DNA from: Raillietiella orientalis
Taxonomy: Eukaryota
Assembly (NCBI GenBank): GCA_036172245.1
Contig: JAYWIR010000043.1
Location: forward strand, 62,001-126,000
Reading direction: 5' to 3'
Length of the DNA: 64,000 nucleotides
The notes beneath the pieces were generated by a model, which saw nothing but the letters and a program-made list of their open reading frames with translations, ran no database searches and had not been told where the DNA came from. The position numbers and the translations under genes were made by a program. Shown here in pieces: positions 18,136 through 47,464 of this stretch (its first letter is position 1; each line of letters starts with the position of its first letter).

Positions 18136-18139
18136 CCAG

Positions 18140-22880: not shown

Positions 22881-25217
22881 CGCCAAGTTGCTGGCTAAGT
22901 TTTGTTCAGAGCGCCTGGGACGTGTCGCCAACATCTTCATCAGCTCGGAAAAGACACATGCTGTTCTCAAGCGAAGTATGGAGGCAATTCTGTTCCACGC
23001 TTCCACATGGTTAGAGCTCCAACAAGGAAGGAGCATAATAAGCAACCGGAATTCCATGGCGTCCGTCGGTGGGGGACGGGATGGTCGGGAGCGGAGAGGA
23101 GCCCTCGCCGTCGCAGTCGATTTGCATAAAGCATCCGATTGCGTTGACCACGATCTCCTTTTAAAGCTTCTGGAACGCTTAAGCTTCCCGGTTTCTTTGC
23201 TGGTTTACCTGCGCTGCAGCTGGCGCTACGCGCTTATCAATGTCTTTTTAAGTGGATCCACCGTGTACGGCGTACCGGTGCGACAAGGCACACGGCAGGG
23301 AGACAGCCTCAACCCCTTGCTCTTGAGCGCCCATTTCGAATTGGTGCTGAGAGCGTACAGGAATACTCGGGCGCACCTGCCGTGCGATTGTCCCGGTACA
23401 CCTGCGGTTTCGGCGTACGCGGACGACATTCTGCTGCTGTCCACTCCGGCCTCGGTGGTCGAGGACTTCTTCGACCTGCTAAGTCGTGGAACAGGACTGA
23501 CGCAGAACAGGGAAAAGTCGTCCGTAATGCCAGTCAGAGCGGCGTGGGCAGAGCAGCAGGACTGGGTTCGTTTGGGAATCCCCACGGTCGGGTACTTCAA
23601 GTACCTTGGTGTGCCGTTAGGGGATTACTCCCCTGGGGAAGCGTGGTTTGGCTGCCTTCAGGAGGCTCAGGCTGCGATCGGCCCGTTCCAGGACGGCAGG
23701 TTCTTCCTGCATGAACGGGCTGCGGCGTGGAACGCGTTTGCGGCCCCCCTCCTTCGCCCCTTGCTTTTTGTTTGCCCCCCCTCAGCGGAGTCAAAGAAGA
23801 GGACGAAGGACCTCCTGAGGATCGCCCTTTGGGGCAGATGGAGGCCCCGAGTCCGTCTTTCGGACTTGTGCGCTCCTCGTCGGGATGGTGGTCTGGGCCT
23901 CCTGACGTTGGAGCGGCTGGAGCTACAGCTCCAGTTCCGAGTTGTTGCCTTCATGGCAGGAAATTGGTGCACCCCTTGGTGCCTCCCTGCACGTCTCCTC
24001 GTCGAGTGGGTCACCAGCAATGCGGGACTCTCGTCCTACTTTGCACTCCGAAGCCCCATCTGCCACTGCGGTCTTCAACTTCGGAGGGCGGCCAAGCTCG
24101 TGAAGAACAACTCGGCGCGGATCCTCGTACGCCCCGCGAACGGTCCTGCATGGCTACAGGAAACCGTGCGCACGTGGGCGATGATTCAGGAGCAGAGTCC
24201 GAAACACGAGCGAATAGCTCTGTCCGGGCCTCACGCCCACCGCACGCTCTGAGAAATCTTCCAGGATCCCCGAAGGAGAGCGTTGTCTCCAAGAACCTCC
24301 CTTACTGCGGTACTGCCTACCCTACGGGAACATCTGGGCAGCAACGTCGCGGCACAATGGGAGGTTACTGTCAAAATCGTCAGCAGGGCAAAGAAGATCG
24401 AAGACTAGAGATCAGGACAACTCACCAACGCTGCGACTCCGAGGACCACACCAAATGGACTCTTGCGCCGGGGAGAGCTACTGGATGTTCCAGAGGAACA
24501 TCTCAAGTGGCCCCCGGTGCTCATGGACTCGCGCACCCTCCCCATGAAGTGGCAACAGTCGGCACTGCTGGTGTTGCATTAAGGGCTTTCTTGCAACGCC
24601 CGCCGACACCACTGGACGCGGGGGGTGTCAACCCTAATTGTGCCAGGTGCGGGGAGAGGGAATACCTCCCCCACCTGTTAGTGGATTGTGTTGCCCTCCG
24701 TCCCTTGTGGGAACGCTTTGCCGCAGCCCTGGGGATCCCCGGAGGCAACCCCAGAGACGCTTTGCGCCCCCTCTTCGTCCGTGACGCCCTGCTTCCAGCG
24801 GCCTCCCTTGCAGCCCTGTCCTGCCTACGCGGGATCGTCGTGGCATGGAGCAAAGCGACGTGAGGATCCAGCGACAGGGATGCCAACGTGTATGCCGCCC
24901 GTTTCCTTAGGTTGGCGACGCGATGGCCCCATCTGGAACCACACAAGCAGAAACAGCTTGCCGGCATCCTCCAGAGGATGACGGACCCTCCCAGCAGACT
25001 GTGATCCCTTCCCGCTCCCTCCCTGATTTTTGTTTATTTTTTGTTTTCTTTTTGTTTCGTTCCCCCTCCCCTCTGTTGCCGACGTCGATCGCGGCGGTCT
25101 GCGCACCGGTAGCCCGGCAGGCTATATCTTTCCAGGGCATGGCTGGACTACTGGTCCAGTCACAGATTATATTGGTTTATTCGTGAGAATAAACGTCCCG
25201 GTGCTCCCGGGTTTCAA
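22880..25217 (+). mobile_element. Element G (family III), 3' part; near-identical to the 3' end of J
   Basis: RT ORF 22876-24252 with YADD; CCHC finger; terminus AATAAACGTCCCGGTGCTCCCGGGTTTCAA at 25188-25217. Confidence 0.9.
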
Positions 25218-25474
25218 GCGAGACTGCGGACGGTGACGCCTCTCAGGAATTCGCAAAGGTGCTCATTCGCATCTGAGAGTCCCGTCCTGTCCCCAGGCAG
25301 ACGCCACGCCTTAAATGGGGGGCCCTTGTCGCGCGGGCACACCTCGAATATCAACCGGAAATGGTCAGACAGCTCCGACGCAACTTTCCCCCGTTAGCCG
25401 ACGCGTCAACACAAGTCGCCATCCAGGAAGAAGTGTTCGATGCTGCGGTCCATTCACCTCTCACCCGCGAACAA
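25218..25474 (-). mobile_element. Fragment U: family II (C-like) endonuclease C-terminus and linker; host of G
   Basis: Reverse complement matches C at about 9935-10190 (SDHFR..EHLCEFLRGVTVRSL). Confidence 0.8.
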
Positions 25475-25479
25475 GATTA

Positions 25480-27592
25480 ACGATTTACATAAAGCATTCG
25501 ATTGCGTCGACCAAGATCTCCTTCTGGAGCTTCTGGAAAGCTTGGGCTTCCCTGCCTCATTAGTGGTCTATCTGCACTCCAGCTGGCGCGATGCTCTCAT
25601 CAAGGTTTCTTTCAGCGGACAGACCAAGCGCGGCGTGCCGGTGCGGCGTGGGATCCGGCTGGGAGACAGCTCGAGCCCCTTGCTATTGAGTACCTACTTT
25701 GAGTTGGTACTGAGAGCGTACAGGGGAACTCTGGCGCACCTGCCGCACGAATGTGCCGAAACGCCAGCCGTTTCAGCGTACGCGGACGACTCTCTGCTGC
25801 TGCTCGATATGTCCATCCCGGCTGCGGCGGTCGAGGAGTTCTTCGACCTGCTGCATCGGGGAACCGGAACGGTGAACAGAGCGAAGTCGTCCGTGATGCC
25901 AGTTGGTGCGGCGCGGGCAGGGCAGCAGTAATGGGTACGTTTGGGGATCCCCACGGGAGGTACTTCAACTACCTTGGTGTGACGTTGGGGGACTACTTTC
26001 CTGCGGAAGCGTGGTCCGGCTGCCTCCAAAATGTAGATACGGCGATCAGTCCGTTCCTGGAAGGCCAGTTTCACTTGCCGGAACCGGCCGCGGTTTGGAA
26101 CGGCTTTGCGGCCCCCATCCTCCGCCCCTTGCTTTTTGTTTGCCCCGCCCCAGGAGTTGTTAAAAAGAGGACGAAGGACCACCTCCGCATCGCCCTTTGG
26201 GGCAAGAGGAGTCCCCGAGTCCCTTTGAAGGACCTTTTTGCTAATCGTCGGGACCGCGGACTTAGCCTCCTGACGCTGGAGCGCGTGGAGAAACAGCTGC
26301 GATGGCGTACCCTCGCCATCGCAGCGAAGATGTGGAGCACCCCGTGGTGCATTCCGACTCGCCTACTCGCCAGTCCTTTGTCCCGGTGGAGGGACTCGCG
26401 TCTTTTCTTTTGATCCCCGGCCGGAAGATCAGAAGATGCGGCCTACAGCTGGGGCGCATGGCATCGTTGCCCATGGAGAACAGCTGGATGGTTTGCTGCC
26501 CCACCAACTCTTCCGCCTGGCTGGAGGAGTACATTGGAACGTGCGCTGTGGTGAACCGGAGAAGCCACGTAACGTAGAATCGTCTCTGATGCAGCCCCTA
26601 CGCCCGCTGCACTCTGAAAAATCTCTTGGAGAATCCAGCTAGAAGCACGTGGGCAGAGACAACCTGCCTGGCTACGGCGCTGCCCTTCCTGAGTAGGGCG
26701 CTTCACAGCAGTCGGACGTCAAGGTGGCAAGTCTCCTGCTGCATCGAGGGACATGAGAACAGAATGAGCGGCTGGAGCATTGGTAAACTTGCGGACGCCA
26801 CGACCCCTAGCGTCCAGCTGCGAGGACTAAGAAGATGGTGCGAGCTGCTGGCCATCCCTATGGATGTGCTGAAGTGGCCCCCGCTTCTTTAGGAATCCAG
26901 GATCCTGCCCTTTAAGTCGAAAGAGACGGCATTGCTGTTGTTGCATTGGGGTTTACCCTGCAACGCACGCCGCTCCCACTGGACAAGAGGAGTTGTGGAT
27001 CCTGCGTGGGTCAAGTGCGGAGAGCGGGAATCGCTCTTCCACCTTATTGTAGACTGTTCTGCCCGTCGTCCCCTTTGGGAACGGTTTGGGACGACCCTCG
27101 GTCTCCCTACGGGCAGTTCCCCTAGAGACGTTCTTCGGTCCCTCTTCGTGAAGGACGCCCTGCAGCCACCCGCAGCCCTTGCAGCCTTGTGCTGCGTGCG
27201 AGGCATCGTGACGGCATGGAGCGACATCAGCAAGGAAGGAGTGGGTCAACACGCGAGGGATGTCATCCCATATGCCCAACGCTTCTTGTGGAGAGCTGCT
27301 GGATGGCCCCAACTGGGGAATATACGGATGGACCTCGAGGGCTTCCTTCAACGGATGGGCCCTCCTTTCAGCGAACAGTGATCCCTTCCCTGCCCTCCAA
27401 CCTCTTTTGTTTGTTTTCGTTTTTGTTTTTATTTTTGTTTTTCCCCATCCCCTTTCGCTGCCGGGGAGTGCCACTCCGGGCAGCGTCCCGGCGTCCCCGT
27501 AGGTCCCGTGCATAAGGCCGTGAGCGGGGCCTGGTGCCGCGATTGTAGAGTTTTTTATCATCAATGAACGCCCCGGGCGTACCCGGGTGGCA
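25480..27592 (+). mobile_element. Element O: degenerate RT through the 3' end; front is family III-like, rear is M-like
   Basis: Starts at DLHKAFD; YADD; CCHC finger; terminus AATGAACGCCCCGGGCGTACCCGGGTG at 27563-27589. Confidence 0.88.
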
Positions 27593-27912
27593 TCTCCCCA
27601 CACAAGTAGTCTACGATGTTTGGGCACCACTTTTGGATGTGCCCGACCTCATCGCAGCAATTGCAATACCGTGGCTTACCCGCATACCAGAGGTCTACTG
27701 GTTCTCCCGCGACCTCAAGTTTGTGGGGAAGCTTGCGCCCATAGCTGTAGGTCTTGTGGAAGGACTTGCCTCCCTCACAACTACATCCATCGTGGTGTCC
27801 TCTGGCACGGCTGCTATCGGACACCGACGACCCACGCTTTACACCTGAGTACACTAAAATCTCCGGTTGCTTCCCAGACAAGCTCTGGCGGAGCCACCAA
27901 GAAACACGTCCA
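27593..27912 (-). mobile_element. Fragment S: internally deleted family II 5' end and ORF1 knuckle region
   Basis: Reverse complement gives LPHKLEVAGEPVDLWYAGKPRYCNCC..; ORF1 start resembles 39170-39250; 5' motif at 27902-27909. Confidence 0.78.
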
Positions 27913-30806
27913 CCCACACCGACTTTCGGCGATGGCTTGAGGAACGACCGGAACTATCTCCAGGCCCGGAGTTTCTCCAACATTGCCGACTTCAGTCGCC
28001 TGACTGAGTTCGAGGGTGGAGCTGAGAGGCACGCCTGGCAATCCGGGTCTGCCTGCTTACTGGACGAAGAAGGCCAGGAGCACTCTTCTCCAGCGCAGGT
28101 TTGCCGCATTTTGCGGGATTTGTACTCCTCTCTCTACGCCAAGAGACCACCAGAGCGCCCTGTTGTGCAGCGTCTGCAGCCAGAGGGTGCTTTCGCTTCA
28201 AGGGAGGACGAAGGTCACACCTTCCAACTGGAATTTACGATGGGGGAGATTGTTTCCATCATCAAGAATCTAAAAAAGAACGAAGCATCATTGGAAGTCG
28301 GCCTGATAGCTGAATTCTACCAACACTTTGCGGCAGAGTTGGCTTCCATGGTGCTCAATTTATGTTTGCTGATCCGTTAACGCGGCGATGTCCCCAACTC
28401 GTTCCAAGCAGCTAGAGTACGTCTCCTTCCTAAGGGAGGAGACTTGCGCAACGTTGGCAACTGGCGTCCCATCACTGTGGTCAATGTGGACGCAAAGATG
28501 CTTGCCAAACTCTGTGCTGAGCATTTGAGACGGGTGTCGGAATCCGTGGTCAGTCCGGAACAGACTTACGCTGTTCCCCGACGAACCTTGGAGGCCAACC
28601 TGTTCCTCGCAAGCACCTTTTGGCAGTTAAAACAGCGCAAGGCTCAGCAAGGTCTGGAGAGTTTTGGACTCTTCAATGACCGAAGGGAGGGAAGCCGGGG
28701 GAATGATGCGGCGCCCGAAGCCCTTGCGGTCGCAGTCCATTTGCGTAAAGCTTTCGAATGCGTCGACCAGGGGCTCCTCCTGGAGCTCCTGGAACGCTTG
28801 GGATTTCCGACCTTCTTCCTGGCGTACCTGCGCTCTTGCTGGCGCTTCAAGCCAATTACCATTAATTTCAGCGGCCGGCACGTGTACGGAGTGCCGGTTT
28901 CTCGCGTCATCCAGCAGGGTAACAGCCTGTGCCCCCTGCTCTTCAGCATCTACCTTGGTTTGGTGCTGAGAGCATACAGAGAGACCTTGGCAACCCAGCC
29001 GAGCTCATGTCTTGGCACGCCTGCCGTGTCAGCCTATGCCGACGACCTTTTGCATCTGCTTCCCGAGTCCACCCCGGCATCGGCGCTCGAAGATTTCTTT
29101 GAGTTGCTGAACCGTGGGACGGGCTTCGAGGTAAACAGGGCGACGTCGTCAATCGTTTCTCCGAAATCCTCGCAAGCAGGATGGTCGGACTGGATCCTCT
29201 TGGGGATCCCCACGGGCAAATACATCAACTTCCTTGGCGTTCCGTTGGGGGACTTCTGCTCTGCAGAAGCCTGGTCCGACCGTTTACAAAAGGTGGAGCT
29301 GGCGATCGGCCCGTTCCGGAACGGCAAGTTTCATTTGCAGGAACGGGCCACGGTATGGAACGCTTTTGCGGCCCCCTCCTTCGCCCTCTACTTTTTTTGT
29401 GCCCTATCCCGTACCAAATTAGGACCCGGACTAGGGGCCTTATACGGAAAGTCCTCTGGGGCAAGCGGAGGCCTCGCGTCCGGCTCAAAGACTTGTGCGC
29501 TCCACGCAGGGACGGTGGACTTGGTCTCCTGACGTTGGAGCGCATGGAGCGACAGCTCCAATTCAGAAAACTTGCTCTTGTGGCAAAGTCTTGGACAGCA
29601 CCCTGGTGTGCACCGGCAAGACTCCTTGCTCACAGGGCAACCTGTTGCTTCGGATTGACTTCAATCCTGGTAGCCAACGAACGCAGCCTTAACCACTACG
29701 GCTTTCAGCTGCGGGAATTGGTTGCCCCGTTGTGAGACAATCCGTGGATCTCCTGCAACCCTGCGGACTGGACTACTTGCTCCAGGAATCCGTTTCCGTA
29801 TGGGCTAAAATCAACGACACCAGCAAGGAGGACTTCTCTTGCCTCCGTAGAGGCAGGTACGCTGGTCAGCCACTGCAGCAGGCAACGTGGGAAGCGGCCT
29901 GCCTCATCGGAGGCAGGAAAAAATTACTGAAGGCGTGGACGTCCCGGGAACTAGCGGACGCTACTACCCCGAGTGTGCCGCCGAACGGAATTGTACGCTG
30001 GGGCGCGCTGCTCAGCATACCTCCGGAGGAGGTGAAGTGGCCCCAGCGTCTTGGGTCAACGGTACCCTTCCCCTGCAGTGGCAGGAGACGGCGTTGCTTC
30101 TGCTCTTCTGGGGCTTTTAAGCAGAGCACGCCTGTCTCACTGGACATCAAGGAGTGTGGATGCTAGTTGTGCAGAGTGCGGGAAAAGAGAAATTTTCTGT
30201 TACTTAATCATAGAATGCGTTGCCCTTCTCGAGATGTGGAACAGACTCTCGTCGATGCTGAACATTCCGGTTGGCGACCCAAAACATCTATTCAGACGCC
30301 TTCTGATGCGAGACGGCTTGCCAGCCTCCGGATGCGTAGCAGTGCTCTGCTGCATACGCGGTATCCTGGATAAGTGGACCGCGTCAAGGAGAGGAAGAAT
30401 CAGTCGAAGAGCCATCCACTGGGCAGCGATCTCTTTGGAGAAAGCCTGTTGTTGACGCCGACTTAATATACATTTGCCGGCATTTGTTCGCATCCGAAAC
30501 CGGATGCAAAGGCCTCCTCACGGCGCACCGTGATTCCCTCCCTCCCTCCCCATCCCCATAAAACATTGCCGTCTACACGTTATTCTTTGTTTCTTTGTTT
30601 TATTTTTTATTTTACCCGCCCCGGCGCTAGTAAGAAGGACCATATCGGCCTCCGGGTCGGTAAGGACAAGTGCAACGACACTACGATAAACTTCTGAATG
30701 TCCTAAAGAGGAAAATTAACCTTGTTTAAAAATTAAGACCTTATTATGAAATTTTTGTATTCTCAAAAATTTAAATAATAAAGGTCCCGGCTTACCCTGG
30801 TGAAAA
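27913..30806 (+). mobile_element. Element P (family IV): degenerate ORF2 from the linker through the 3' end
   Basis: FGDG..RN, WRPITVVN, YADD, CAECGKREIFCYLIIEC; terminus AATAAAGGTCCCGGCTTACCCTGGTG at 30777-30802. Confidence 0.88.
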
Positions 30807-30996
30807 ACCTTGTATACAAGCGACAGCTTGTATTCACAGGACCGATAGGCGGATTCCTCTGCCAAGACCTCCGCAATAAGCGCGGCGACCATTTCGCACC
30901 AAGTCTTTGTCGGCTGCGAAGACGGTCCAGGGTCTGTTGCCCTCATAGCCGTAGGTTGTGTGGAAGGACTTGCCTCCTTCACGAATACATCCATCC
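30807..30996 (-). mobile_element. Fragment T: family II ORF1 N-terminal remnant; host of P
   Basis: Reverse complement gives ..YKLSLVYKV; similar to 27740-27790. Confidence 0.72.
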
Positions 30997-31021
30997 AACG
31001 TCCCGGCGTACCCGGGTGGAA
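30997..31021 (+). repeat. Orphan 3'-terminal hairpin whose element body has been deleted
   Basis: AACGTCCCGGCGTACCCGGGTG followed by GAA, with no 3' UTR upstream. Confidence 0.75.
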
Positions 31022-31597
31022 GCTCTGAAGCAGCGCGGAAGCTGGTGCAAGGGAAACCGGCAGCAAAACTCGCGGACCGATTTTTTCAGATCGCCCCAGT
31101 CAGAGAGGTCACTCATGAAGAAGCCGCGGAGGTACTGGAGAAAATGCTCCGCCACCTCCGAATGACTTAGCTAGTCTGCCATCATCCTCCAACACAGTTT
31201 GGAGGCCCCTTGCCTGGAGGGAGCAGTTCGAACTCGAGCCTGTTGTGGTCTGAAAGTAAGAGACGCACCCTTGCTGAGCGAAACGAGGCAGGGACATTGC
31301 CCGTCTCTCGCATCAGCGCATGAAGCCTCACCACCAGAGGAATGAGTTCCGCCGCGAAGCACTGGAAGAACTCCGCAGGCAGACCATTTTCACATAGCAG
31401 CTTGTGCTGATCGAAGTCCGCTAAAGCGAAAGACACTTCTTCCGCCATGAAGGGCAAGTCAAGAGTGGCTCGTACCTCCTCGTCGACCGCCGGGGAATCC
31501 GCCGGCAGAAGCAGCTCCGAGAGACTGCGTTCCGTCGGCTCCCTAGCATACATCGAGGAGTAGTAGCTCTTTAGGAGGCGGCGAACTCCGGCCCCGC
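31022..31597 (-). mobile_element. Two fused family I ORF2 fragments (R region)
   Basis: 31597-31254 encodes YYSS..FRSARVRLL, joined out of order to LSDHNRLEFELL..LPRCF at 31253-31022. Confidence 0.8.
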
Positions 31598-33056
31598 CAA
31601 AGCCCTCTTGAGGACTGCCCTTTGAGGCACAGCGAGGTCACGTGTCCGGTTGAAAGACTTGTTCGCTCCACGCAGGGATGGTGGTTTGGGGCTCCTTACG
31701 TTGGAGCGCATCCAACTACAGACAACACTTCGGAAGTTAGCCCTTGCGGCTAGCTTATGGATGACGCCATTGTGCGATCCGGCACGGCTCCTCGCCAGAA
31801 GAGCGACCGGCTGCGAAGGATTGTCCTCGATCCTCGTGGCCTACCAGCGCAGCCTCTCCAGCTGTGGCCTTCATTTGCGCCAGATGGTCGCCCTGATGAT
31901 GGAGAATACCTGGATCTCCTGCCTTCCCGCGAACTGCACTGCCTGGCTTCAGAAGTCAGCTTCCGCGTGGGCTAAGATCAACGGCACGAGCGAGGCGGAA
32001 TACAACTGCCTACGACGAGGACCGTACGCTCGACAGCCGCTGCAGGAGATAATCAACACGCCCCGGAAGTTTCTGTGGGCTTCTTTCAGCCCTGTTGCCC
32101 CCGTTCTGTCCTCTTTTAAAAACACTAGGAGCATTAACGAGCGGGCATCGTGAGAAGTGTCCTGCCTCATCCGAGGCAGGAAAAAACCATTAAAGGCGTG
32201 GACGACTCGGGAGCTTACGGACGCTGCCACCCCGAGCGTTCCGCTTCATGGACTTGCGCGCTGGGGAGAGCTGCTCGCAATACCTCCGAAGGAGGTGAAG
32301 TGGCTCCCAGCGTGTTGGCATTGTGGCACACTCCCGTTGAAGTGGCAGGAGACGGCGTTGCTATTTCTGCACTGGGGACTGTTAAGCAGAGCACGCCTGT
32401 CTCACTGGACACTGGGGCATGTGGATGCCCGCTGTGTCGAGTGCGGAGAAAGAGAAACCTTCCCGCATCTCACCTTCGAATGTGTCGCCCTGGATGGACT
32501 CTGGAGTCAAATCGCCCCAATCCTCCATCTTCCAGTAGGCGACCCTAAGGAAACTTACCGTCTCCTCTTTCTGCGAGACGGCCTGCGCCCCGCTGCGTCT
32601 CTAGCAGTCCTCTGCTGCGTGCGCGGCATTGTGCAAAGGTGGCACGCCAGAAGAAGAGGCCCAAGATGCAGGGACGCCTACCACTGGACGATGATCTCTT
32701 TATAGACGGCGACAAGGTGGCGTCTACCTTTCACAGTTGAAGCAGAACTTGACTGCATCCTTAACAGGATGCGGAGGACCGTCCCAGGCGCCCAGTGATC
32801 CCTTCCTTGCCCCCCCCCTCTCCCCATACAACTGTTTTCCTTCCCGTTATCTCTCTTTTTGTTTGTTGTTTTTCTAGTTTTCCCTTCCCATGCGCCTCGG
32901 GAATGTTCCTAACCGGTCTATGCACCGGCAACCGACACGTCCAGCAATGTAGGAGAACCCAGTGTTTCTCCTCAGAAAACATCTTTTTTGAAGACTTTAT
33001 TATCTAATTTTTGTAAAAAATTAGAATAATAAATGCCCCGGCATATCCTGGTGCCA
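31598..33056 (+). mobile_element. Element Q (family IV), 5'-truncated, with TSD
   Basis: TSD AACTCCGGCC(C/G)CGC at 31584-31597 and 33057-33070; CVECGERETFPHLTFEC; terminus at 33028-33053. Confidence 0.88.
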
Positions 33057-33310
33057 AACTCCGGCCGCGCTCAAGCACTTCATGCCTTGGTCGTCGAGCA
33101 GAGAAGCCGCTCCTGACTGCCAGACCTCGCGCTCGTCCTTGGCCTTGTACTCTGTAAGGAACCGGACGTCCGTGCTTCGAGAGAATTGGCGGGACTGCAG
33201 AAACTCTGCTGTTGGCCACGCCATCTTCCAAGCCACGAAGAAGCAGGCGCAAAAGGAACCGGCTGCAGAACTCGCGGACCGATGTTTTCAGATCGTTCCA
33301 GTCCACGAGC
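33057..33310 (-). mobile_element. Continuation of host R on the other side of Q
   Basis: Reverse complement gives DWNDLKTSVREFC..WQSGAASLLDDQG. Confidence 0.8.
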
Positions 33311-33319
33311 GAGAGCGGA

Positions 33320-34570
33320 TGGATTTATGTTTCGCTCTTGAGCGTTTGTGGTTTCATTTTTTTCTTTTTTTTCTTGGTGTGCCAGTGGATTCGGTGGTGG
33401 CTAGGCAGCAATGCCTAGCCAACATCAATGTTAGGGAGGGGGCGACGTCTATATCGCCTCCTGAATCAATGGATGTGGGGGCAAGCGCCCCCACAGAAGC
33501 AACTCCCTCGCTAGAGAGATGCTGGAGTTCCGTGGCTGCGGCGTCAACGCAAGCGGCTGCGGCTGAGTTGAAAGCCTACCTGGAGAAGGGGTGAAATCCC
33601 CCTCTACTCTACAAGGTAGGCAACCTTTACTCCTTTGAGAGTGCACGCGCTTTCTCGAAAGCGATGCACTCTTTCAAAGTACCCCAGGAGGAGCTCTTGG
33701 CGATGACCATCAGGAGTGGTGGACAGTACGTTGAAGTGATTTGGAAAGAAGCAAGTCTTGCCCAGCGTTTGCTCCGTACACCTGTTCCTTTAGGGAATCG
33801 CCGGCTCCTCCCCATCACGGAGGATAGATCTATCGTGATCCACCTCCTCGGAATCAACTTCCGGATAACCGAAGAGGCTGTCCGAAAGGAACTAGTTAAA
33901 TTTGAAACTGTCCACGCGTTGTGGAAAAGGCCGACTCCGTTTAGGGAGTACGATCTCCTGAATTGCGTTATGGCTTGCGCGCTAAGCACGGTCCGCGAGG
34001 GTTGCTCCCTACCAAAAAGGCTGGAGGTCAACGGCGAACCCGTTGGCACCTGGTATGTAGGAAAGCCGCATTTCTGCGGGCATTGCAGCACTCCAGATCA
34101 CCTGACAAAATTTTCTTTCACTTCCAGTGCAAGCAATTGAAACAACCCTGGCACACTCTTCCAGTGTGTTCGCGAAATGAAGTCTGCGTCGCGTGCGTAC
34201 GGAATGCGAAGAAGCGCGCGGCCAAAAAACGAAGAGTTCAGGCAGCCCGAAAGAGAGCCGCAGCTAAAAAGACAACTGTCGTGCCCCAGGTGAAGGTCAG
34301 CTCCGAGATATTGGAAAACTCGGACAAAGTGGAGGAGAACGGCATGGAACCTGTATGGCAAGTAGTAAAATCCAAGGGGCAAAAAAGCCTCAAGGAACCA
34401 AAAAGTGTCGCGAAACGCAGCGAGAATTTGCCGCGTTGGGGAAAGATGAACCGCTTCTCTGTCGTCATCAGGTGCATTCCTGCGAGCGAACAGAGTTGCC
34501 AAATTGCACTTATCGCTGCAGACTTTCAAACCTCCGGCAAAGCAATGCCGGAGGATATCGACCCAATTTA
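33320..34570 (+). mobile_element. Element D': second copy of the D 5' UTR and ORF1
   Basis: Colinear with about 13300-14545; carries the same frameshift (..FTSSASN*). Confidence 0.85.
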
Positions 34571-36149
34571 AGGGTGACCTCTGGTCAGGGTGGGGACATC
34601 CGTGCGGGCAAGGGTGTCCTACCGATCGTAGTCGATCTTCTTAAAGCTTTCAATTGCGTGGACCAGGAGCTTCTCCTCAGGCGTGTGCATCGCATGGGTT
34701 TCCCACCTACCTTAACGGCGTACCTGAGCTCCTACTTGCGCATTGCGCTCACAAATATCTGTTTCAGAAGACAGAACGACTACGGCATGCAGGTGCGCCG
34801 CGGGATTCGGCAGGGCGATAGCCTCAGTCCCCCGCTCTTTAGTACCTACTTCGAGGTGGTGCTGAGAGCTTACAGGATGAATTTGGCTGCCTTGCCAAGC
34901 TCATGCTCCGACACTCCTGCCGTGCCCGCCTTTGCCGACGATCTGCTGCTCCTGCTACCAATGTCCGCCCCGGGAACGGCAGTCGAATATTTCTTCAACC
35001 TGCTAAGACGTGGGACAGAACTACTGGTCAACAGGGCAAAATGGTCGATGGTGGCAGTTGGAGCGACGTGGGTAAGACGGCCCGACTGGATCCGCCTGGG
35101 GATCCCGACGGCCACACATCTGAAGTACCTTGGCATTCCGCTGTGGGACTTCTGCCCGTCAGAAGCATGGTCAGGCCGTCTTCAGAAAGTGGACTGGGCG
35201 ATCCGCCCATTCCTGGAGGTCAAGTTCCACTTGCCGGAACGGGCCACAGTATGGAACGCGTTTGAAGCTCACATCCTCCGCCCCCTGCTCTTTGTGTGTC
35301 CCGTCCCCCGTGACTTGAAGAAGAGGACAAAAGACCTTCTCCGCTTTGCCCTCTGGGGTAGCGGGAGGCCTCGTGCTCTTCTTAAGGACATATGCGCTCC
35401 GCGTCGGGACGGAGGTCTAGGCCTCCTGACGTTGGCGCGCATGGACATACAGCTGCAATGGCGCACCCTTGCCATCGCAGCAAAGACGTGGAACACCCCT
35501 GATGCGTCCCGGCCCGCATTCCCGCCAGCCGTGTATCGAGGACGCAAGGACTCGCGTCTTTCCTTCTGTGCCCCGGCCGGAAGGTCAGGAGATGCGGCCT
35601 TCTCCTTGGGCGCATGGAATCCCTGGTGAGATAGAACGGCTGGACGGTATGCAGCCCTGCCAACTACTCCGCTTGTCTGGAGGAATCCGTTGGGACGTGA
35701 GCCAAGGTAAACCTCCAGACTGGACGTGAATGGAACCGCCTGCGACTCGGTTCCAACGCCTGCTGCACCTTACGGACTACTCTGGAGTGTCTCTCCAGGA
35801 GCGAGTAGGCGGAGACCACCCCTTTGGCTTCGACGCTGCCCTTCCTACGAAGGGATCAAACCAGGGGCCGGACGCCGAAGTGGCACGTCTCCTGCCGGAT
35901 CGCAGGCAGGGAAAAGAAAATGAGCGGTTGGACCATAGGTGAACTGGCAGATGCCACGAACCCGAGTGCCCTTCCACGTGGACTTGTTAAATGAAGCGAG
36001 CTGCTCGGCATCCCGACGGATGACCTGAAGTTGCCCCCAGTATCAATCGGATCCAGGCTTCTCTTGCTAAAGTGGCAAGAGTCGGCAGTGCTGCTGTTTC
36101 ACAGGGTTTTACCCCGTAACGCGCGACGCTTCCACTGAACAAGAGGAAA
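34571..36149 (+). mobile_element. Element H (family II, C-like): degenerate RT and C-terminal fragment; host of I
   Basis: DLLKAFN, GIRQGDSLSP, FADD; cut just before the CCHC finger. Confidence 0.85.
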
Positions 36150-39091
36150 TTTTCACCCGGTCACGCCGGAGCCTTTATTGCTAAACACTATGTTTTCGCG
36201 GTACGAGGCCCCGCTACGGCCAATAGTTCTTTGGAGCTGCCGGGAAGCCGGCTCGCAGGCCGGCTTTACTCTTCTCGGCAGCGGAGGGGGAAGGGGGTAA
36301 AAACGAAAAGAAAAATAGAAGAAATAAACGGAAACAAACTATTTGGAGGGCCGGGAATGGATCACAGCCCGCTGGAGGAAGAGACCATCCTTTCGAGGAT
36401 GCCCTCGAGGTCCCTCCTTATTGTTCCCAGATGGGTCATGCCGATCGCGATTCGTAGCTATCTACCAGCGTGTACGATAGGATCCCTGTCACGGCTTCCT
36501 CTGTTGGCTGCGCTCCACGAGGCCACAATCCCTCGGAGGCAGCAAAGTGCTGCAAGGGCTGAGGCCGCTGTCAGGGCATGTCTCACGAAGAGGAGTCCCA
36601 TAACGTCTCTGGAAGTGCTGCCTAACGGCATTGAAAGGTTCGTAGCAAAACGTTCCCACAAGGGCCGAAGGACACCGCAGTCCACTAACAGATGGGGGAG
36701 GGATTCCTTCTCCCCGCACACTGCACAGTTCTGTTTAACATTCCCCCACGTCCAGTGGTGGCGGCGCGCGTTGCAGGGAAGACCCCAGTGCAACAACAAC
36801 AGCGCCGTTTCCTGCCACTTTAGGAAGAGGATTGATGAATCAATGAACGACGGGGGCCACTCTAGGTCATCCGTCGGGATGCCAAGCAGCTCGCTCCATC
36901 TCCGTAGTCCATGCGGGTGAATTCTTGGGGTCGCGGCGTCAGCCAGTTCCCTCATGGTCCACGCAGTCAGATCCTTCTCTTTGCCCGCTATCCGGCTGGA
37001 GACTTGCCATCTCGGCTTTCGAATATTTTGGAGCGCCCTCCGTAGGAAGGGTAGAGCCGTGGCCAGTGGGGTCGTCTCCGCCCATGTGCTTCTGGCGGGA
37101 CACACGATCATGTTCCGCAGCGTGCAGTGGGTGTAGATGCCGGTACGCAGGCCGTAGCAGGATTCTTCACTGATATTATTTATCTTTGCACACGTTCCAA
37201 CTGTTTCTTCCAGCCATGCGCTGGAGTTGACAGGGCTGTAGGTCATCCACGCGTTCTCCTTTGCCAGGGTGGCCATGCGTCCCAGTAGAAGTCTGCATCT
37301 TCTTTTTTTCCGGCCGGGGCACAGAAGAAAAGACGCGAGTCCTTCAGTCCCGGACACACGTCTGACGAGAAGGCGGGCCGCTGCGCACCACGGGGTGTTC
37401 CACATTTTCGCTGCGATGGCTAGAGTACGCCAACGCAGCTGTGTTTCCATTCGCTCCATCGTCAGTACGCTGAGACCTCCGTCCCGACGTGGAGCGCACA
37501 AGTCTTTTAGAGGCACACGAGGCCTCCCGCCGCCCCACAGGGCGATAGGTAGGAGGTCCTTCGTTCGTTTACTTAATTCACGGGGTACAGGGCAAACAAA
37601 AAGTAGGGTGCGAAGGAGGGGGGCCGCGAACGCGTTCCACACCGCGGCCCGTTCCGGCATGTGAAGCTTGCCTTCCAGGAACGGGCCGATCGCTGACTCC
37701 ACTTTTTGGAGACGACCTGACCAGGCTTCTGACTGACAGAAGTCCCCCAACGGAACGAGGAGGTACTTTAAGTACCTGTCCGTGGGGATCCCCTGGTGGA
37801 TCCAATCAGGTAGTCCTGCCCACGTAGCACCAACAGCAACCAGCGATGACTTCGTCCTGTTTACCTGTAGTCTTGTCCCACGGCTCAACAATTCGAAGAA
37901 ATCTTCGACTGCCGAAGCCGGGGCGGACATGTGCGGCAGGAGCAAAAGATCGTCAGCGTACGACGACACGGCCGGCGTACTTGGACACGAGCTTGACAGG
38001 GCAGTCAATGTCACCCTGTAGGCTCTCAGCACCAGTTCGAAATAGTTGCTGAAGAGTAGAAGACTCAGGCTGTCGCCCTGCCGGATGCAGCGCCTCACCG
38101 GTACGCCGAACACATGCTGTCCTCTAAAAAGTACGTTAATGATCGCATTGAGCCAGCAGGCGCGCAGGTAAACCAGTAAAGTGTCCGGGAAGTCCATGCG
38201 ATCCAGGAGCTCAGGAAGGAGTACCTGGTCCACGCAATCGAACGCTTTGTGCAGATCGACTGCGATCGCTAAAGCCCCCTTCCCTTCCCTGCAGTCCCTT
38301 GTTTGCCGCGCTGGCGCTCCCAAATTAGGTTTGTCGTCATTTCGTTCTTTTTTCTTCTCTTTTTCTTCGTATTGTAGATTGAACCATGCGCTGGCGAAGG
38401 ACAGGATCGCTTCCGTGCTCCGCCCGGGAACAGCGTACGTCTGTTCCAAGCTGACGAAAATTTCAGCTACCTGTCCAAGTCGCGCAGCCCACAGTCCGGC
38501 CAGCATCTTGACGTCCGTGTTCACTATCGTGATCAAACGCCAGTTGCTTAATTTCCTAAGGTCTCCTTCCTTAGGGAGGAGCCTCACCCTGGCTTACCGA
38601 AACGAGGAAGGAACATCGCCTTGGTCTCGGAACAGCGATGTCAATTTGAGCGCCAGGGAGGTCAGCACTGCGACGAAGCACTGAAAGAACTCCGCCGGCA
38701 GGCCGTCCTCCCCTGCTTCCTTACGCCTTTTGAGCCTTTCAATCGCGGTGATGATTTCCCCGGTCGTAAATGGCTCCTCGATGCTTTCTTTCTCCTCCTC
38801 ATCTATGGCCGGGGCTCCAGCAGGAAGCAGGCGTGGCGAAGCATCCCACTCCGCAGGTGCCCTTTCGTATAGAGAGGAGTAAAATCCACACACGAGGCGA
38901 CGTATCAAAGCCGTCTCCGAGTGTTCCTGGTCCAAATCGTCCAGCACGCAGGGCGGTCCGGTTTGCCATGCTAGACACTCGGCCCCGGCTTTGTATTCCG
39001 CCAAGAGACGGACGTAAGGGGTCCTTGCGAGACCACAGGCGTGCAAATACGCCCTTTCGTTGCAGGTCCCTACTCGAAATCCCCTCTGTGG
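36150..39091 (-). mobile_element. Element I (family II-like), 3' part; host of M
   Basis: ORF 38587-36458 (709 aa, with YADD and CAVC..H..C); minus-strand terminus AATAAAGGCTCCGGCGTGACCGGGTG at 36154-36179. Confidence 0.9.
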
Positions 39092-41800
39092 AGGGAGGAC
39101 GTGCTTTTCCTGCGCTCCGCCTGCGTGGCAAGGCGAGCGGTTTTTTGCTGAGTGGTTTGTGCGTGCACATCGTCGGTGTCCGATGGTAGCGCTGCCAGAG
39201 GACATCGCGATGAAAGTAGGCGTGAGGGAGGCTTGTTCCTCCCCACAGCCTACTGGATCAGGGGCATCCGCCCCGGAATCGTCCCCGGCGAAGCCGAGGT
39301 CATGGAGCGCCATGGAGGCCGCGCCTAGCGTGGAAACCATGGCCGAGATGGAAGCCTACAAGACAGCGGGGTATAAACCCTCGCTAGTCTACAAGGTAGG
39401 CAAACTTTTTGATGGGCGAATTGCACGCGCCTTCAAGAAGGCGCTGCAGAACGCCAATATCATCGAAAAAGATCTTCACGGCCTCTCCGTCCTCAGCGGC
39501 GGGCAGCGGGTCGAGGTAGTATGCAAAGATATCACCTTGGCCCGACGCCGTATCACCGAACCGCTGATCGTTGATGGTCGGAAGATCTTGCCGGTGACGA
39601 TGGACCGCTCGGTGGTGGTCCATCTGACTGGGATCTCCAGTCGCATGACTAGGTCAGCGGTTCGTGAACAGTTGCAAAAGCACGCAGAAGTGCACGCGCT
39701 GATGGCCGAAGTCCACGATTTTCCAAGGCTACAATAGCCTTTTCGGAGGTTGAGCTGCGGCGCGTATCACAGTAAAAGAGGGTGGTGCGCTTCCTTTGAA
39801 GCTGGAGGTCTGCCAAGAAGCGGTGGACCTCTGGTACGTGGGAACACGCCAATTTTGTGGCTACTGCAATGCAGTAGGGCATCTACGAAAAAGGTGCTCG
39901 AACATTGTGTGCCACCTATGCGGCGAAAAGGATCACGTTCGGCGCGTGTGCCCCAAGCGCCCCAACCCGGTGCCCCCTGCCGCGAAAAAGGCGCAGGGAA
40001 AACGTGGAAAGCTGGTAGAAAGGCCAGCTCGAGAAAATGGCCGTTCCCAACTGCCAGCCTCCCTTCCTCCCGTACAGACGTCGGAGGAAATAGCTCCCGT
40101 GAACGCGGAAACGGAGGAGGGTTGGCCGCTGGTTTAATCCAGAAACGAAAAAAAAAAGAAAGTGATGCCAGATGAAAAGTCCAAGAAAACTGCCGGCAAC
40201 AAGAAAAAAGCCGCGCCGCTTTCAAAAAAAAAATAACTCCGCGAATGCTCGGGGGCACTGGAACGCTTAGCCGTTCCTGCCGAGTCCGCCCGCGGCAATG
40301 TTCAGCAAACAGCTGATACGGCCGCGATGAATACTGGCGTGGACTAGCCTATTCTACGTTTAGAGGGTGAGACGCGAGAGTCGCGCGCCGACAGCCAGGA
40401 CGCCGCGCTCGATAAAGTCGCGGAGCAGCCCGCGGCAACGGTCGCCGCTGGCGAAGACGCGGCCTTCGAGAAAGCGACGGAAAAGCTCGCAGCAACGCTC
40501 GCCGAGCGCGAAACCCCGTCGCGCAAGGCCGTACGCAGATCGGCATCGACGAAGAAGGCCCCCGCAGGTGAGTGCGACCTGGAAGCCGGAAGCGGATCCT
40601 CCTCCTCGGAGGCACCCCGCAGGAGACGGGACGCAAGTCCCAGAAACCCAGGAGGCGCCTCCCCTCCACCAACGAGGAGTAGAAGCCGGAATGAAGCGGC
40701 AACGTGGGAATCCCGGAGGGGGAACACCCACGCCCGGAAGCCGTCGAGTCGGCCACCCCCATGGAGGAGGGTGAGCCGGGGGGTGAAGTCCTCCCTGCAG
40801 TTGCGAAACCTGAGCAGCCCGAACCCATGGAGGAAGGCGAACAGGTAGGCGCGACTCCACGTGCGGGTGATCCGGCCGACGCGCCGGCACCGATGGAGGA
40901 GGAGGAACAGGTGCCTTCAGTACCTGTCCCCCCTCCTTCTCCACCTAGCGTCCCGCCCCAGCAGGTGGCCGACGCTACAGAGCCGATTTCCCAACAATAA
41001 CACCTGGACTAGCCTGTCGCCGTCGAATCCGCGTGGCCAGTTGGAACGTCAACGGGCTGCACGACGACGGCAACAGACGAGATACGGCCGACACCCTGCT
41101 TGAGTTCGACCTGGCCCTGCTGCAGGAGATCTACGTGATCACCGCGGCAGGCGCCCAGGAGATCGAGACGATCGCGGGGGATCGGTTGTATTGGCGTTGC
41201 TGCCTCCACAACACCTGCGGGGTCGCGTTCTTCGTGAAGCCGGCCATCGACGCTGTCGTAAAGGGCGTGCGGTTCGATGACGACGGTTGGATCGGTCAGC
41301 TGATTCTCAGCTGGTCCGACTCGATCGAATTGATCGTCACGAATGTGTACGCCCCCAGCGGTAAACAGGGGTACCGCGACCGCACCAGACTGCTGGAAAC
41401 CCTGAAGCGCGACTGGCTGGCGGAGACCAATGTGCGAAAGGCTCACCTGATAGCGGAAGATTCCAATCTCCGTCTGCTAACAGGTGAGCCTGAAACAGAA
41501 GAGAACGCGATGAACGAGTTGTGCGCCGCCTTGCGTGCGCGCAACCTGTTCGCGGGTGAGTGGGGAATGGTCTGAAGCATCGACCACGTCTTCCTCGACG
41601 CTCACCTGTGTTCACGGGTCGGCGAACGGGGAAGATTGCCTCGACGCTGTCGGACCATTCCAGGCTAATTTTCTAGATGCGGCCTCGCGAGGAAAGACCG
41701 CCATCCAGAGACTGGCGTCACCCCGGGGACTGGACGCGTCTCTCAGGTGCAAAGGTACACCTTCGCAAAGACCTGAGAAGCGTCACGCTCCGGAATCTCC
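39092..41800 (+). mobile_element. Element M part 1 (family II): 5' UTR, disrupted ORF1, endonuclease domain
   Basis: ORF1 about 39183-41000; TAACA at 40998-41002; WNVNG, LQE, YAPS, SDH; ends at the TSD of J. Confidence 0.9.
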
Positions 41801-44800
41801 ATTGAAACCCGGGAGCACCGGGACGTTTATTCTCACGAATAAACCAATATAATCTGTGACTGGACCAGTAGTCCAGCCATGCCCTGGAAAGATATAGCCT
41901 GCCGGCCTACCGGTGCGCAGACCGGCGCGGTCGACCTCGGCAACAGAGGGGAGGGGGAACGAAACAAAAAGAAAACAAAAAATAAACAAAAATCAGGGAG
42001 GGAGCGGGAAGGGATCACAGACTGCTGGGAGAGTCCGTCATCCTCTGGAGGATGCCGGCAAGCTGTTTCTGCTTGTGTGGTTCCAGATGGGGCCATCGCG
42101 TCGCCAACCTAAGGAAACGGGCGGCATACACGTTGGCATCCCTGTCGCTGGATCCTCACGTCGCTTTGCTCCATGCCACGACGATCCCGCGTAGGCAGCA
42201 CAGGGCTGCAAGGGAGGCCGCTGGAAGCAGGGCGTCACGGACGAAGAGGGGGCGCAAAGCGTCTCTGGGGTTGCCTCCGGGGATCCCCAGGGCTGCGGCA
42301 AAGCGTTCCCACAAGGGACGGAGGGCAACACAATCCACTAACAGGTGGGGGAGGTATTCCCTCTCCCCGCACCTGACACAATTGGGGTTGACACCCTCCT
42401 GCGTACAGTGGTGTCGGCGGGCGTTGCAAGGAAGCCCCCAATGCAACACCATCAGTGACGACTGTTGCCACTTCATGGGGAGGGTGCGCGAGTCCAAGAG
42501 CACCGGAGGCCACTCGAGATGTTCCTCTGGAACATCCAGTAGCTCTCCCCAGCGCAACAGTCCATTTGGGGTGGTCCTCGGGGTCGCAGCGTTGGTGAGC
42601 TGACCCGTTCTGCAGTCCCCGATCTTCTTTGCCCTGCTGGCGACCTTGACAGTAACCTCCCATTGTGCCGCGACGTCGCTGCCCAGATGTTCCCGTAGGG
42701 TAGGCAGTACCGCAGCAAGGGAGGTTTTTTGTGCCCACGCTCTCCTTCGGAGATTCTCGATGATTTCTCGCAGCGTGCGGCGGGCATGCGGCCCGAACAG
42801 AGCTATTCGCTCGTGTTGCGGGCTCTGCTCCTGAATCATCCCCAACGTGCGGACGGTTTCCTGCAACCAGGCAGGACCGTTCGCGGGGCGTACGAGGATC
42901 CGCGCCGAGTTGTTCTTCACGAGCTTGGCCGCCCCCCGAAGTTGAAGTCCGCAGTGGCAGATGGGGCTTCGGAGTGCAACGTAGGACGAGAGTCCCGCAT
43001 TGCCGATGGGCCGCTCGACGAGGAGACGTGCAGGGAGGCACCAAGGGATGCACCAATTTCCTGCCATAAAGGCAACAACTCGGAACTGGAGCTGTAGCTC
43101 CAGCCGCTCCAACGTCAGGAGGCCCAGACCACCATCCCGACGAGGAGCGCACAAGTCCGAAAGACGGACTCGGGGCCTCCATCTGCCCCAAAGAGCGATC
43201 CTCAGGAGGTCCTTCGTCCTCTTCTTTGACTTCGCTGAGGGGGGGCAAACAAAAAGTAAGGGGCGAAGGAGGGGGGCCGCATACGCGTTCCACGCCGCAG
43301 CCCGTTCCTGCAGGTAGAACCTGCCGTCCTGGAACGGGCCGATCGCCGCCTGAGCCTTCTGAAGGCAGCCGGACCACGCTTCCGCAGGGGAGTAATCCCC
43401 CAACGGCACACCAAGGTACTTGAAGTACCTCACCGTGGGGATCCCTAAACGGACCCAGTCCTGCTGCCCTGCCCAAGCCGCTCTGACTGGCATTACGGAC
43501 GACTTCGCCCTGTTCACCGTCAGTCCTCTTCCACGACTCAGCAGGTCGAAGAAGTCCTCGATTGCCGAGACCGGGGTGGACATAGGCAGCAGCAGCAGCA
43601 GATCGTCCGCGTGCGCCGAAACCGCAGGCGTACCGGGGCAATCGCACGGCAGGTGCGCAAGAGTCTCCCTGTACGCTCTCAGCACCAATTCGAAAAAGGC
43701 GCTAAAGAGCAGGGGGCTCAGGCTGTCTCCCTGCCGTATGCCGCGTCGCACCGGTACTCCGTGCACGGTTTGCCCGCTGAAAAGAACATTAATGAGCGCG
43801 TCGCGCCAGCTGGAGCGCAGGTAGGCCAACAAAGAGGCCGGGAAGCCCAAGCGTTCCAGAAGCTCCAGCAGGAGATTCTGGTCGACACTGTTGAATGCTT
43901 TACGAGAGTCGACAGCGACCGCAAGGGCTCCCTTCCCCACTCGACCGTTCCGTCTCCCGCCAACGGACGCACCGGAATTCCGGCTGCTCAATAAGCCCCT
44001 TCCTTGTTGGAGCTCCAACCATGTGGAAGCGTGGAACAGGTTCGCCTGCATGCTCCGCCCGGGAACAGCATCAGTCTCTTCCGGGCTGATGAAGATGTTG
44101 GCAACCTGTCCCAGACGCTCTGCCCACATCTTGGCTATCTACTTGGCGTCTGCATTCACTATTGTGATGGGACGCCAGTTGTTCAGGCTCCTTAGGTCTC
44201 CTCCCTTCGGGAGGAGCCGCACCTTTGCTAAACGAAACGAGGTGGGAACGTCACCTGTTTCACGGATCAGCAAGGTGAGCTGATGTACCAGGGGAGTAAG
44301 CTCAGCCGCGAAAGTTTGGTAAAAGTCCGCGGGCAGGCCGTCCTCCCCTGGAGCCTTCCGCCTCTTGAGCTTTCCGATGGCCGAGAGGATCTGGTCCATC
44401 GTGAAAGGCTCGTCGAGGCTTCTTTTCTCCTCCTCCCCGATCGCTGGAGCACCTTCCGGAAGCAGAAGTCGTGAGACGTCTCGCTCCGAAGGCGCCCTGG
44501 CGTACAGGGAGGAGTAAAATTTCCTCACTATTCCGCGTTTCTGAGCGGGAACCGAGTGCTCCCGGCCCTGGTCGTCCATTAAGCTGGCCGACCCGGATTG
44601 CCAGGCTTGCCTCTCGGCTCCCGCTCGATACTCTGCTAACCTGCGCATGTCGGGGGTTCTCGCGTAACGTCGGGCCTGAAGATAGAGCCTTTAGTTACGC
44701 GGCTCCTCCCCAAATCCCGCAGGTATGCGATGGAGGGGGAACTGGTTGCAGAACTCCAGGACCGACCGTTTGAAGCCGTCCCAGTCCTGAAGTGTCTGCA

Positions 44801-45444: not shown

Positions 45445-45561
45445 CGTACAGTGCAGACGTGTTTCCGCGTCTTTCCGCGCCAACGATCGGGCAACTTTGT
45501 GCCTGCGTTTTTGCTCGCACTTGTGTGTTCCTGTGCAATCTGCCAAGTAGCATAGTGCAGC

Positions 45562-47274: not shown

Positions 47275-47464
47275 GGCGTGACACACTCGCCGCGGAACGG
47301 CGAGTGCTCACCTCGGAACCCACAGGTTCTGCACCCGGGGAGGAGCACCCGATTACGTGCAGCACAGTTGAGGCCGGTGGCGACCGCGCCCTCCAGCCCG
47401 TCGTGCTGCTTACTGCCCGCTCGCCGGGTGAGGCGAGCACAACGGCCTCGCTTTCCCAGCCGTG

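Follow-up and report, generated by a model that had tools for sequence, protein, structure and literature searches.

Two family III LINE copies occupy the same ORF2 nucleotide of two different host LINEs in a retrotransposon nest of Raillietiella orientalis

The 64,000 nucleotides (nt) of Raillietiella orientalis DNA studied here (assembly GCA_036172245.1, contig JAYWIR010000043.1, positions 62,001–126,000 of the forward strand; hereafter the window) consist almost wholly of copies of one kind of element and form a dense nest of retrotransposons that lack long terminal repeats, also called long interspersed nuclear elements (LINEs). Two copies of one of these LINE families, family III, here designated G and J, sit at the identical position in two different host LINEs, Hg and Hj, which raises the question of how this coincidence arose. 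We consider it probable, and hold with good confidence, that G and J are two separate target-primed insertions of family III into the same nucleotide of two older LINE copies. The insertion point lies in the coding region of the second open reading frame (ORF2), just after the apurinic/apyrimidinic-type (APE) endonuclease domain. Coordinates given below are positions within the window, residues follow a reference ORF2 numbering, and feature boundaries are collected in Table 1.

Both junction strings given by the original prediction are present where it had placed them. On the plus strand the J junction reads CGTCACGCTCCGGAATCTCC (41781–41800), followed by a single A and by TTGAAACCCGGG from 41802 onward, while the G junction, taken as the reverse complement of 25206–25238, reads CGTCACCGTCCGCAGTCTCG-C-TTGAAACCCGGG. 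The two hosts break off 20 nt past a common CGTCAC, at the same nucleotide and directly before the DWD codons, and each guest runs antisense to the ORF2 of the LINE that it adjoins. Guest and host are separated in both cases by one base, a G at 25218 and an A at 41801 on the plus strand, the former of which may be untemplated. The terminal 20-mer common to both guests, CCGGTGCTCCCGGGTTTCAA, lies at 25198–25217 (+) and 41802–41821 (−) and occurs exactly twice in the window when up to 3 mismatches are allowed, against an expectation of 0.02 from shuffled sequence, in which 0 of 100 shuffles reached two occurrences. What is left of G extends from about ORF2 residue 485 through the stop codon and the 3′ untranslated region (UTR) to the terminus ...CCCGGGTTTCAA. 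Its host Hg ends at the DWD site and adjoins copy F at 25482 with a truncated 5′ end of its own, and the first piece of Hj ends with the left copy of a target-site duplication made by J (41785/41788–41800).

Across these junctions sequence identity changes abruptly. The last 537 nt of the guests agree at 530 positions (98.7 %), whereas the flanks of Hg and Hj agree at only 195 of 260 (75.0 %; Fisher p = 1e-26), and a global alignment places the step exactly at the junction. This is the pairwise comparison that had been proposed as a check on independent insertion, and the host flanks turned out not to be as alike as the guests. The accompanying description of the guests as near-identical holds for their 3′ ends and fails for G as a whole, which matches J at 2135 of 2337 positions (91.4 %), with values of 79, 83, 93, 96, 91, 92, 99.7 and 97.5 % in successive 300-nt blocks. 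As read from the alignments, such mosaic identity implies recombination or gene conversion among family members. In its 5′-most part J is nearer to copy L (84 %) than to G (80–82 %).

New in the present analysis is that J is a full-length element, split by another LINE and flanked by an exact target-site duplication. J is interrupted at about ORF2 residues 51–55 by copy K, an insertion that masks its full-length state and that is itself bounded by an exact 12-bp duplication, AGCCCGGGAGAT, at 45433–45444 and 51394–51405; the ORF2 of K carries a single defect, one in-frame stop. Beyond K, the ORF1 of J is intact with 552 amino acids (aa; 53215–51557), and the element reaches its 5′ end at 53297–53300. 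The host then resumes with CTCCGGAATCTCC (53301–53313), the right copy of the duplication, and continues into TGGACTGGGAC, which holds the DWD codons. The duplicated string of J, ACGCTCCGGAATCTCC, is exact over 13 bp, or 16 bp when ACG is counted, and is found at 41785/88–41800 and 53298/301–53313. As the related copy B contains this string only once, the repeat was made by the insertion, and J is a textbook target-primed insertion in which the duplication proves target priming. The sense strand of its host was broken between ...AATCTCC and TGGACTGGGAC, with the nick in the other strand 13–16 nt upstream. Hj was entered a second time by L, which is bordered by a 13-bp duplication of its own (CATAAGGCGTTCG on the left, CACAAGGCGTTCG on the right), and its third piece is followed by a 12-nt target-like spacer and then by the 5′ end of a family-B copy, N2. 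Nesting of J in Hj, K in J, L in Hj and Hj in copy M is thus seen from duplications or matching host halves.

The two hosts were said to belong to different subfamilies, and this was borne out. Hj matches copy B at 231 of 262 positions (88 %), against 75 % between Hj and Hg (p = 1e-4), and the last 60 nt of Hg are C-like; the DWD site is empty in copy B and in copy C alike. LINE insertions do not excise. Since Hj is nearer to B and the site in B is empty, J entered Hj after Hj and Hg had split. The hosts also differ in extent: Hj is full length, carries ORF1 and has its 5′ end inside copy M, and Hg is truncated at about residue 185 against F, so that the two are separate retrotransposition products. 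The step from 98.7 % identical guests to 75 % identical hosts, the empty site in B, the duplication flanking J and the separate origin of the hosts uphold the proposal of independent insertion, which the sequence evidence supports for G and J.

The DWD site is used further by the family III-related copies D and D′, whose 5′ ends (13295 and 33319) do lie at this spot, as had been suspected from less precise mapping. The host remnant H1 lies between copy C, which ends at 13200 with its 3′ terminus, and D, whose 5′ end stands at the DWD site of H1; the host fragment H′ adjoins D′ at its DWD site, and at its far end it meets the 3′ terminus of copy Q (33058). D and D′ are antisense to host fragments that start 13 nt before TGGACTGGGAC in H1 or before TGGACTGGAAC in H′, a boundary placed by continuity of the host reading frame (QLSLLDWD and PLSLVDWN). 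H1 and H′ share the reading DWDDLKRSVR with copies A and K, which sets them apart in family from Hj and Hg. In the ORF1-core tree J, D and D′ fall together with L as sister, and A/K and X/N/N2 form separate groups; G, which retains only part of ORF2, pairs with J in the reverse transcriptase (RT) and C-terminal trees. All four guests at the DWD site (G, J, D and D′) are antisense to their hosts, and the stagger is constant at 13 nt in J, D and D′. We count three secure independent events at this site (G, J and D), possibly four.

Occupied and empty DWD sites differ in one base. At the occupied sites whose downstream side is visible, a T precedes GGACTGG in 3/3 cases (13279 (−), 33303 (−) and 53316), while the seven empty sites, in copies A, B, C, D, J, K and L (2561, 6002, ~10195, 15824, 44786 (−), 48275 and 57212 (−)), carry an A or G before GGACTGG or a variant of it in 7/7. 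With these very small numbers, the T hints at a recognition sequence. The bases to the left of the nick vary among hosts (CTCC, CTCG, CTCT, CTCG), and the conserved block is found to the right of it. In family III itself, copies J and D have the empty-type base at their DWD sites.

A second site, the GFG site, lies 81 nt from the DWD site, downstream in the host sense, and not at the distance of about 75 nt originally given. It is marked by four junctions in four hosts (13200/13201, 31022/31023, 27924/27925 and 39085/39086). The 3′ end of C (13200) adjoins H1 after GGC TTC GAA G, and copy S, a family-B 3′ terminus of ~30 nt ending at 31022, adjoins another host after TGC TTC AGA G, so that the 3′ ends of C and S stand in the same register in two hosts. 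At the remaining two junctions, N (= Hj, 39086) and x (27924) meet hosts M and P with their 5′ ends, and each host continues from the GF codons onward. Where the family of a guest at the GFG site is known (C, N/Hj and S), the sequence is of family B in 3/3 cases, and the H1 remnant is enclosed between a family-B guest and one of family III. These junctions support, in small numbers, the claim that the DWD site may be a family-specific site near the GFG site.

The same site appears to have been used again next to Hj. The 12 nt that follow its 3′ end, TCCAATTCCCCT, resemble the duplicated segment of M, CTCGAAATCCCCT, and the 5′ end of N2, which is 91 % identical to N, follows this spacer (61898–61911). 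We infer that the order Hj, spacer, N2 could reflect re-insertion at a site kept intact by the duplication on the 5′ side of the guest. The public run X1, compared with 22800–42799, gave 152 of 212 contigs that are 90–95 % alike, at a 0.18 share of sampled words, and therefore stems from a relative and not from the source of this DNA; among RNA runs no holder was listed. The join at 61898 has a counterpart in one X1 contig, in which an F-like 3′ end is followed by ATTCCAAT and an N-like 5′ end; among the X1 contigs listed, none bridges 25217 or 41802.

Further insertion positions were noted in the window. The HKAFD codons form a third recurrent site, at which L inserted with its 13-bp duplication (54210–54222 / 59792–59804), and Hg, at its truncated 5′ end, joins F no more than 6 nt from the position of L (25475–25500), with about 6 additional bases. 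Family A/K/E has its 3′ ends (A 5660, E 20630, K 51394) at three host positions that share only ATCT(C/A)CC, which suggests that it may prefer a short motif over a unique site. A adjoins B in sense, unlike most junctions.

From the observed junctions a course of events can be proposed. What is observed is the break of the host sense strand at ...N13^TGGACTGGGAC, before the DWD codons, the joining of the guest 3′ end (...CCCGGGTTTCAA) to that break through one extra base and, for J, the duplication of the 13–16 bp upstream of the break at the guest 5′ end. The family III APE endonuclease would recognise TGGACTGG(G/A)AC and nick the sense strand beside this block, a reading prompted by the APE endonucleases of R1Bm, TRAS1 and Tx1L, whose published enzymology shows recognition of about 10 bp around the cut (PMC1919474). 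The nicked end would then prime cDNA synthesis, and a further nick in the opposite strand, at a distance of 13 nt, would yield the duplication. Sister families would use other fixed sites, family B at GGC TTC GGA G^AG, for which the reverse complement of ...GGCTTCGGAG is the expected flank, and L at HKAFD. Each new LINE would add landing sites, making the nest self-feeding. Pairing of the 3′ end of the guest RNA with the nicked target was considered and rejected as unlikely, since ...ATCTCC and ...GTCTCG are not complementary to ...UUUCAA and the extra base intervenes. D was likewise dismissed as the missing 5′ part of G, since the two overlap in ORF2 residues 485–1041.

Several observations weigh against independent insertion directed by a family-specific endonuclease. 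The 5′-most 600 nt of G and J agree at only 492 of 600 positions (82 %), compared with 75 % for the hosts (p = 0.02), and the resemblance of Hg to C does not significantly exceed that of Hg to Hj (p = 0.41). The window holds just two family III 3′ junctions, and G is without a 5′ junction, so no duplication can be checked there; its truncated 5′ end instead meets the 5′ end of copy X head to head at 22880/22881. Seven DWD sites in the window are empty. The position of the B/C-like Hg within 6 nt of the L site argues against strict family specificity, and the specificity of the endonuclease is inferred. For D and D′, a blast match spans host and guest together (13198–14544 vs 33222–34564, 87 %), and their host flank (67/81) is about as diverged as the guest (87–92 %), so that a single insertion with subsequent duplication may account for both D and D′.

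A comparable history could apply to G and J themselves, if one ancient insertion was followed by an inverted duplication of host and guest, and either the guests then stayed alike through gene conversion with active family members or one flank was converted by a C-type element. G and J are indeed inverted, 16.6 kb apart, a repeat-finder match between them reaches 153 nt into the host flank, their identity is patchy by block (79–99.7 %) as conversion would give, the block in which they diverge most (82 %) comes fairly close to the host flanks (75 %), and D and D′ resemble such a duplicated composite. However, the identity step falls exactly at the element end, Hj is closer to the empty-site copy B than to Hg (p = 1e-4), Hg and Hj differ in their 5′ ends and surroundings (Hg truncated at ~185 at F, Hj full length in M), and D and D′ sit at the DWD site in hosts of another family. 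Conversion of the whole 260-nt flank between sequences that are 75–80 % identical would moreover be unusual, and we regard a single duplicated insertion as improbable.

If the insertions were independent, the shared position might still be a hot spot owed to local DNA structure, to a short nick motif or to chance instead of endonuclease recognition. The 3′ ends of A, K and E, at three places sharing only ATCT(C/A)CC, show that a short motif may suffice in some families, and the window offers only 14 3′ junctions. Against this, the breakpoint is nucleotide-identical, the orientation is the same, J, D and D′ share a constant 13-nt stagger, hosts vary in the bases left of the nick and have the conserved block to its right, and the GFG site is used with the same precision by another family. 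By our own estimate, which is not a computed value, about 12,000 position-orientation states per element would put a chance coincidence among 14 junctions at about 0.02, and we judge such a hot spot quite improbable. As a source of the two junctions, or of the 99 % identity between the guests' 3′ ends, mis-joining or cross-polishing of near-identical repeats during assembly appears highly improbable, although the window is nearly all repetitive and contains a gap of 99 N (62845–62943), the joins at 18137/18139 and 22880/22881 are not explicable as insertions, and the sole public run found comes from a relative that is mostly 90–95 % identical. Both junctions lead into coherent, diverged host sequence that stays in frame to the same codon, and the matching duplications of J lie 11.5 kb apart, which a mis-join would not make. 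Two separate target-primed insertions of family III thus remain our preferred explanation.

With regard to the element type, tblastn with two ORF2 references located ~40 ORF2 fragments on both strands of the window, whose GC content is about 0.53–0.62 in 2-kb windows. A full copy consists of an ORF1 of about 550–580 aa and an ORF2 of about 1190 aa. ORF1 carries CX2CX4HX4C knuckles, with a weak zf-CCHC match (19 bits vs a cutoff of 20.8). For ORF2, the RT domain is recognised as PF00078 RVT_1 (E = 2e-20, 73.8 bits, cutoff 29.6; ORF 5651–8794) and additionally in 4 other ORFs among the 11 scanned, and the N-terminal endonuclease as PF03372 Exo_endo_phos (E = 2e-13, 51.1 bits, cutoff 24.5; residues 15–222, ORF 15014–15823 of copy D). 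In Hj, ORF 41033–41575 reaches 25.5 bits for Exo_endo_phos (cutoff 24.5), and the C-terminal zinc finger of ORF2 scores 22.7 bits for zf-RVT, below the cutoff of 27.5. The elements of the window are APE-type non-LTR retrotransposons. Copies G, B, C, E, F and Hg are 5′-truncated, and target-site duplications were found for J (13–16 bp, exact), K (12 bp, exact) and L (13 bp, one mismatch). The assembly gap lies inside copy N2. At 18137/18139, D runs at about ORF2 residue 1041 straight into E at about residue 434 on the same strand; this join and that at 22880/22881 misfit simple nesting and could stem from deletions, rearrangements or assembly errors.

In protein searches the sole close match to ORF2 was a 619-aa fragment, 66 % identical and outside the DWD/GFG region. 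The other best relatives were 19–28 % identical, all with RVT_1 and many with Exo_endo_phos and/or zf-RVT, those named coming from plants, a fish, an octopus and a protist. ORF1 gave no match at E ≤ 0.01 among 8000 candidates scored, and the Atlas protein clusters for these elements comprised generic RT clusters only, with no informative taxon.

None of the 14 LINE 3′ ends in the window carries an A run. Most share AATAAACGCCCCGG-N4-6-CCGGGTG and a short tail; G and J instead end in ...CCCGGGTTTCAA, and P, Q, M, Hj and S vary the motif. The common 3′ layout comprises an AU-rich stem including AATAAA, a CCCGG-loop-CCGGG hairpin and 6–9 unpaired bases, and family III has the tail TTTCAA where most others have TGAxAAT. 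The CCCGG/CCGGG hairpin is part of the minimum-energy structure in 5 of the 9 termini folded, with modest z-scores (−3.4 for A, −3.1 for J, weaker for the others). The 3′ UTRs of G and J further contain a hairpin CTGGAC-TACTG-GTCCAG (25140–25163 (+) and about 41856–41878 (−)), whose arms, together with the bases after them, are similar to TGGACTGG, the target block (reverse complement CCAGTCCA), a likeness that may be chance or meaningful. Ten of the 14 3′ ends adjoin an antisense LINE and two a LINE in sense (A to B and B to C), one belongs to the Hj/N2 tandem, and one (P) is unassigned. A metagenome scan for AATAAACGYCCCGG-N4-6-CCGGGT returned 21 loci, none of them similar to LINE proteins by tblastn, and they look unrelated.

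Table 1. Elements, host pieces and junction bases in the window (residues refer to ORF2)
Feature	Position	Strand	Basis
H1, 94-nt remnant of an A/K-like host ORF2, between GFG and DWD sites	13201–13294	−	
D, LINE related to family III, with ORF1 and with ORF2 as far as residue ~1041	13295–18137	+	
G, family III copy, 5′-truncated	22881–25217	+	tblastn map, identity to J, terminal 20-mer
Base G, assignable to neither G nor Hg	25218	.	junction sequence
Hg, host of G, C-like ORF2 fragment (residues ~185–269)	25219–25481	−	tblastn map, alignments
H′, A/K-like host ORF2 fragment (residues ~269–352)	33059–33318	−	
D′, 5′ UTR and ORF1 portion of a copy 87–92 % identical to D	33319–34564	+	
Hj piece 1, family-B LINE: 5′ UTR, ORF1, ORF2 residues 3–270	39086–41800	+	
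Base A between Hj and the J 3′ end	41801	.	missing from intact host sequence beyond J
J 3′ part, family III, ORF2 residues ~51–1188 and 3′ UTR	41802–45444	−	
K, full-length LINE, family A/K/E, antisense in J	45445–51393	+	
J 5′ part: ORF2 start, ORF1, 5′ UTR	51394–53300	−	
Hj piece 2, to ORF2 residue ~572	53301–54222	+	
L, full-length LINE, sister lineage of family III, antisense in Hj at HKAFD codons	54223–59791	−	
Hj piece 3, ORF2 residues ~568–1187 and 3′ UTR	59792–61898	+	
Element 3′ ends	5659, 9012, 13200, 20629, 27593, 36149 (−), 51393, 54223 (−), 61898; with variant ends: 25217, 41802 (−), 30807, 31022, 33058		

The shared position of G and J is one facet of a larger picture, and the data support a nest in which LINE families entered one another's ORF2 antisense and in a site-specific manner. 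As a tentative extension, to which we would give somewhat less than even credence, the window may house sibling LINE families that act as a guild: the endonuclease of each family would be directed, always antisense, to a separate conserved codon block in the ORF2 of the others, and the nest would serve as their exclusive and self-renewing landing pad. Nested LINE islands are the main centromere-associated repeat in several green algae. Published accounts of such islands, in the portions available, state only that new copies 'target existing copies', whereas the window provides a base-level anatomy of a nest with nick site, 13-bp stagger, antisense orientation and family-dependent sites. If the guild exists, the duplication would keep a used site intact on the 5′ side of the guest, and repeated hits would build tandem arrays such as Hj, spacer and N2, which would offer a nucleotide-level mechanism for the growth and confinement of Zepp-type LINE islands, the proposed algal centromeres. 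Should the pattern hold genome-wide, APE endonucleases would be retargetable to the coding sequence of related retrotransposons, a safe-haven strategy for a parasite whose target multiplies along with it. Endonucleases paired in nature with targets of about 10 bp would then be at hand for work on how LINE target specificity evolves.

Among known systems, the nearest are Zepp of Coccomyxa subellipsoidea C-169 (formerly Chlorella vulgaris) and ZeppL-1_cRei, a Chlamydomonas L1 element, which form nested LINE clusters, one per chromosome, that are proposed centromeres (PMC3446292, PMC8226300). As described there, they resemble the present nest in a gag-like ORF1, an RT-encoding ORF2, nested copies, tandem arrays and 5′ ends that are often truncated. 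For Zepp and L1-1_CR an (A)n end is listed, however (PMC3747384, Table 3), whereas the elements of the window end in a GC hairpin and a short tail. As they are without (A)n tails, we do not file them as Zepp. The window further differs from Zepp in holding several diverged families, each with a nucleotide-precise antisense site in ORF2. A fixed site within the element, an antisense rule and family-specific sites are absent from the Zepp accounts searched, in the portions available and with the original 1997–2003 reports outside coverage, and the accessible parts of the brown-alga centromere and CENH3/ZeppL preprints contain nothing on insertion sites within elements.

Also comparable are R1, which inserts into 28S rDNA, TRAS1 and SART1, which insert into telomeric repeats, and Tx1L. 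Like the present elements, they carry the APE domain N-terminally in ORF2, insert in a fixed orientation, form a precise 3′ junction at one site in many copies of the target and produce a defined duplication (PMC1919474). R1, TRAS and Tx1L are recognised by the same insertion point and orientation in independent copies, and this is what is found here for G and J, whose hosts are 75 % identical, and for D and D′. The targets of R1, TRAS1, SART1 and Tx1L are multicopy genes or simple repeats of the host, whereas here they are the coding sequence of other LINEs, so that the target family grows with each insertion. A LINE that likewise targets a transposable element is Tx1L of Xenopus laevis, which inserts into the DNA transposon Tx1D (PMC6719617, PMC1919474). 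The target of Tx1L is an unrelated DNA transposon; in the window it is sibling LINE families that are entered, antisense in ORF2 and at a site that differs by family.

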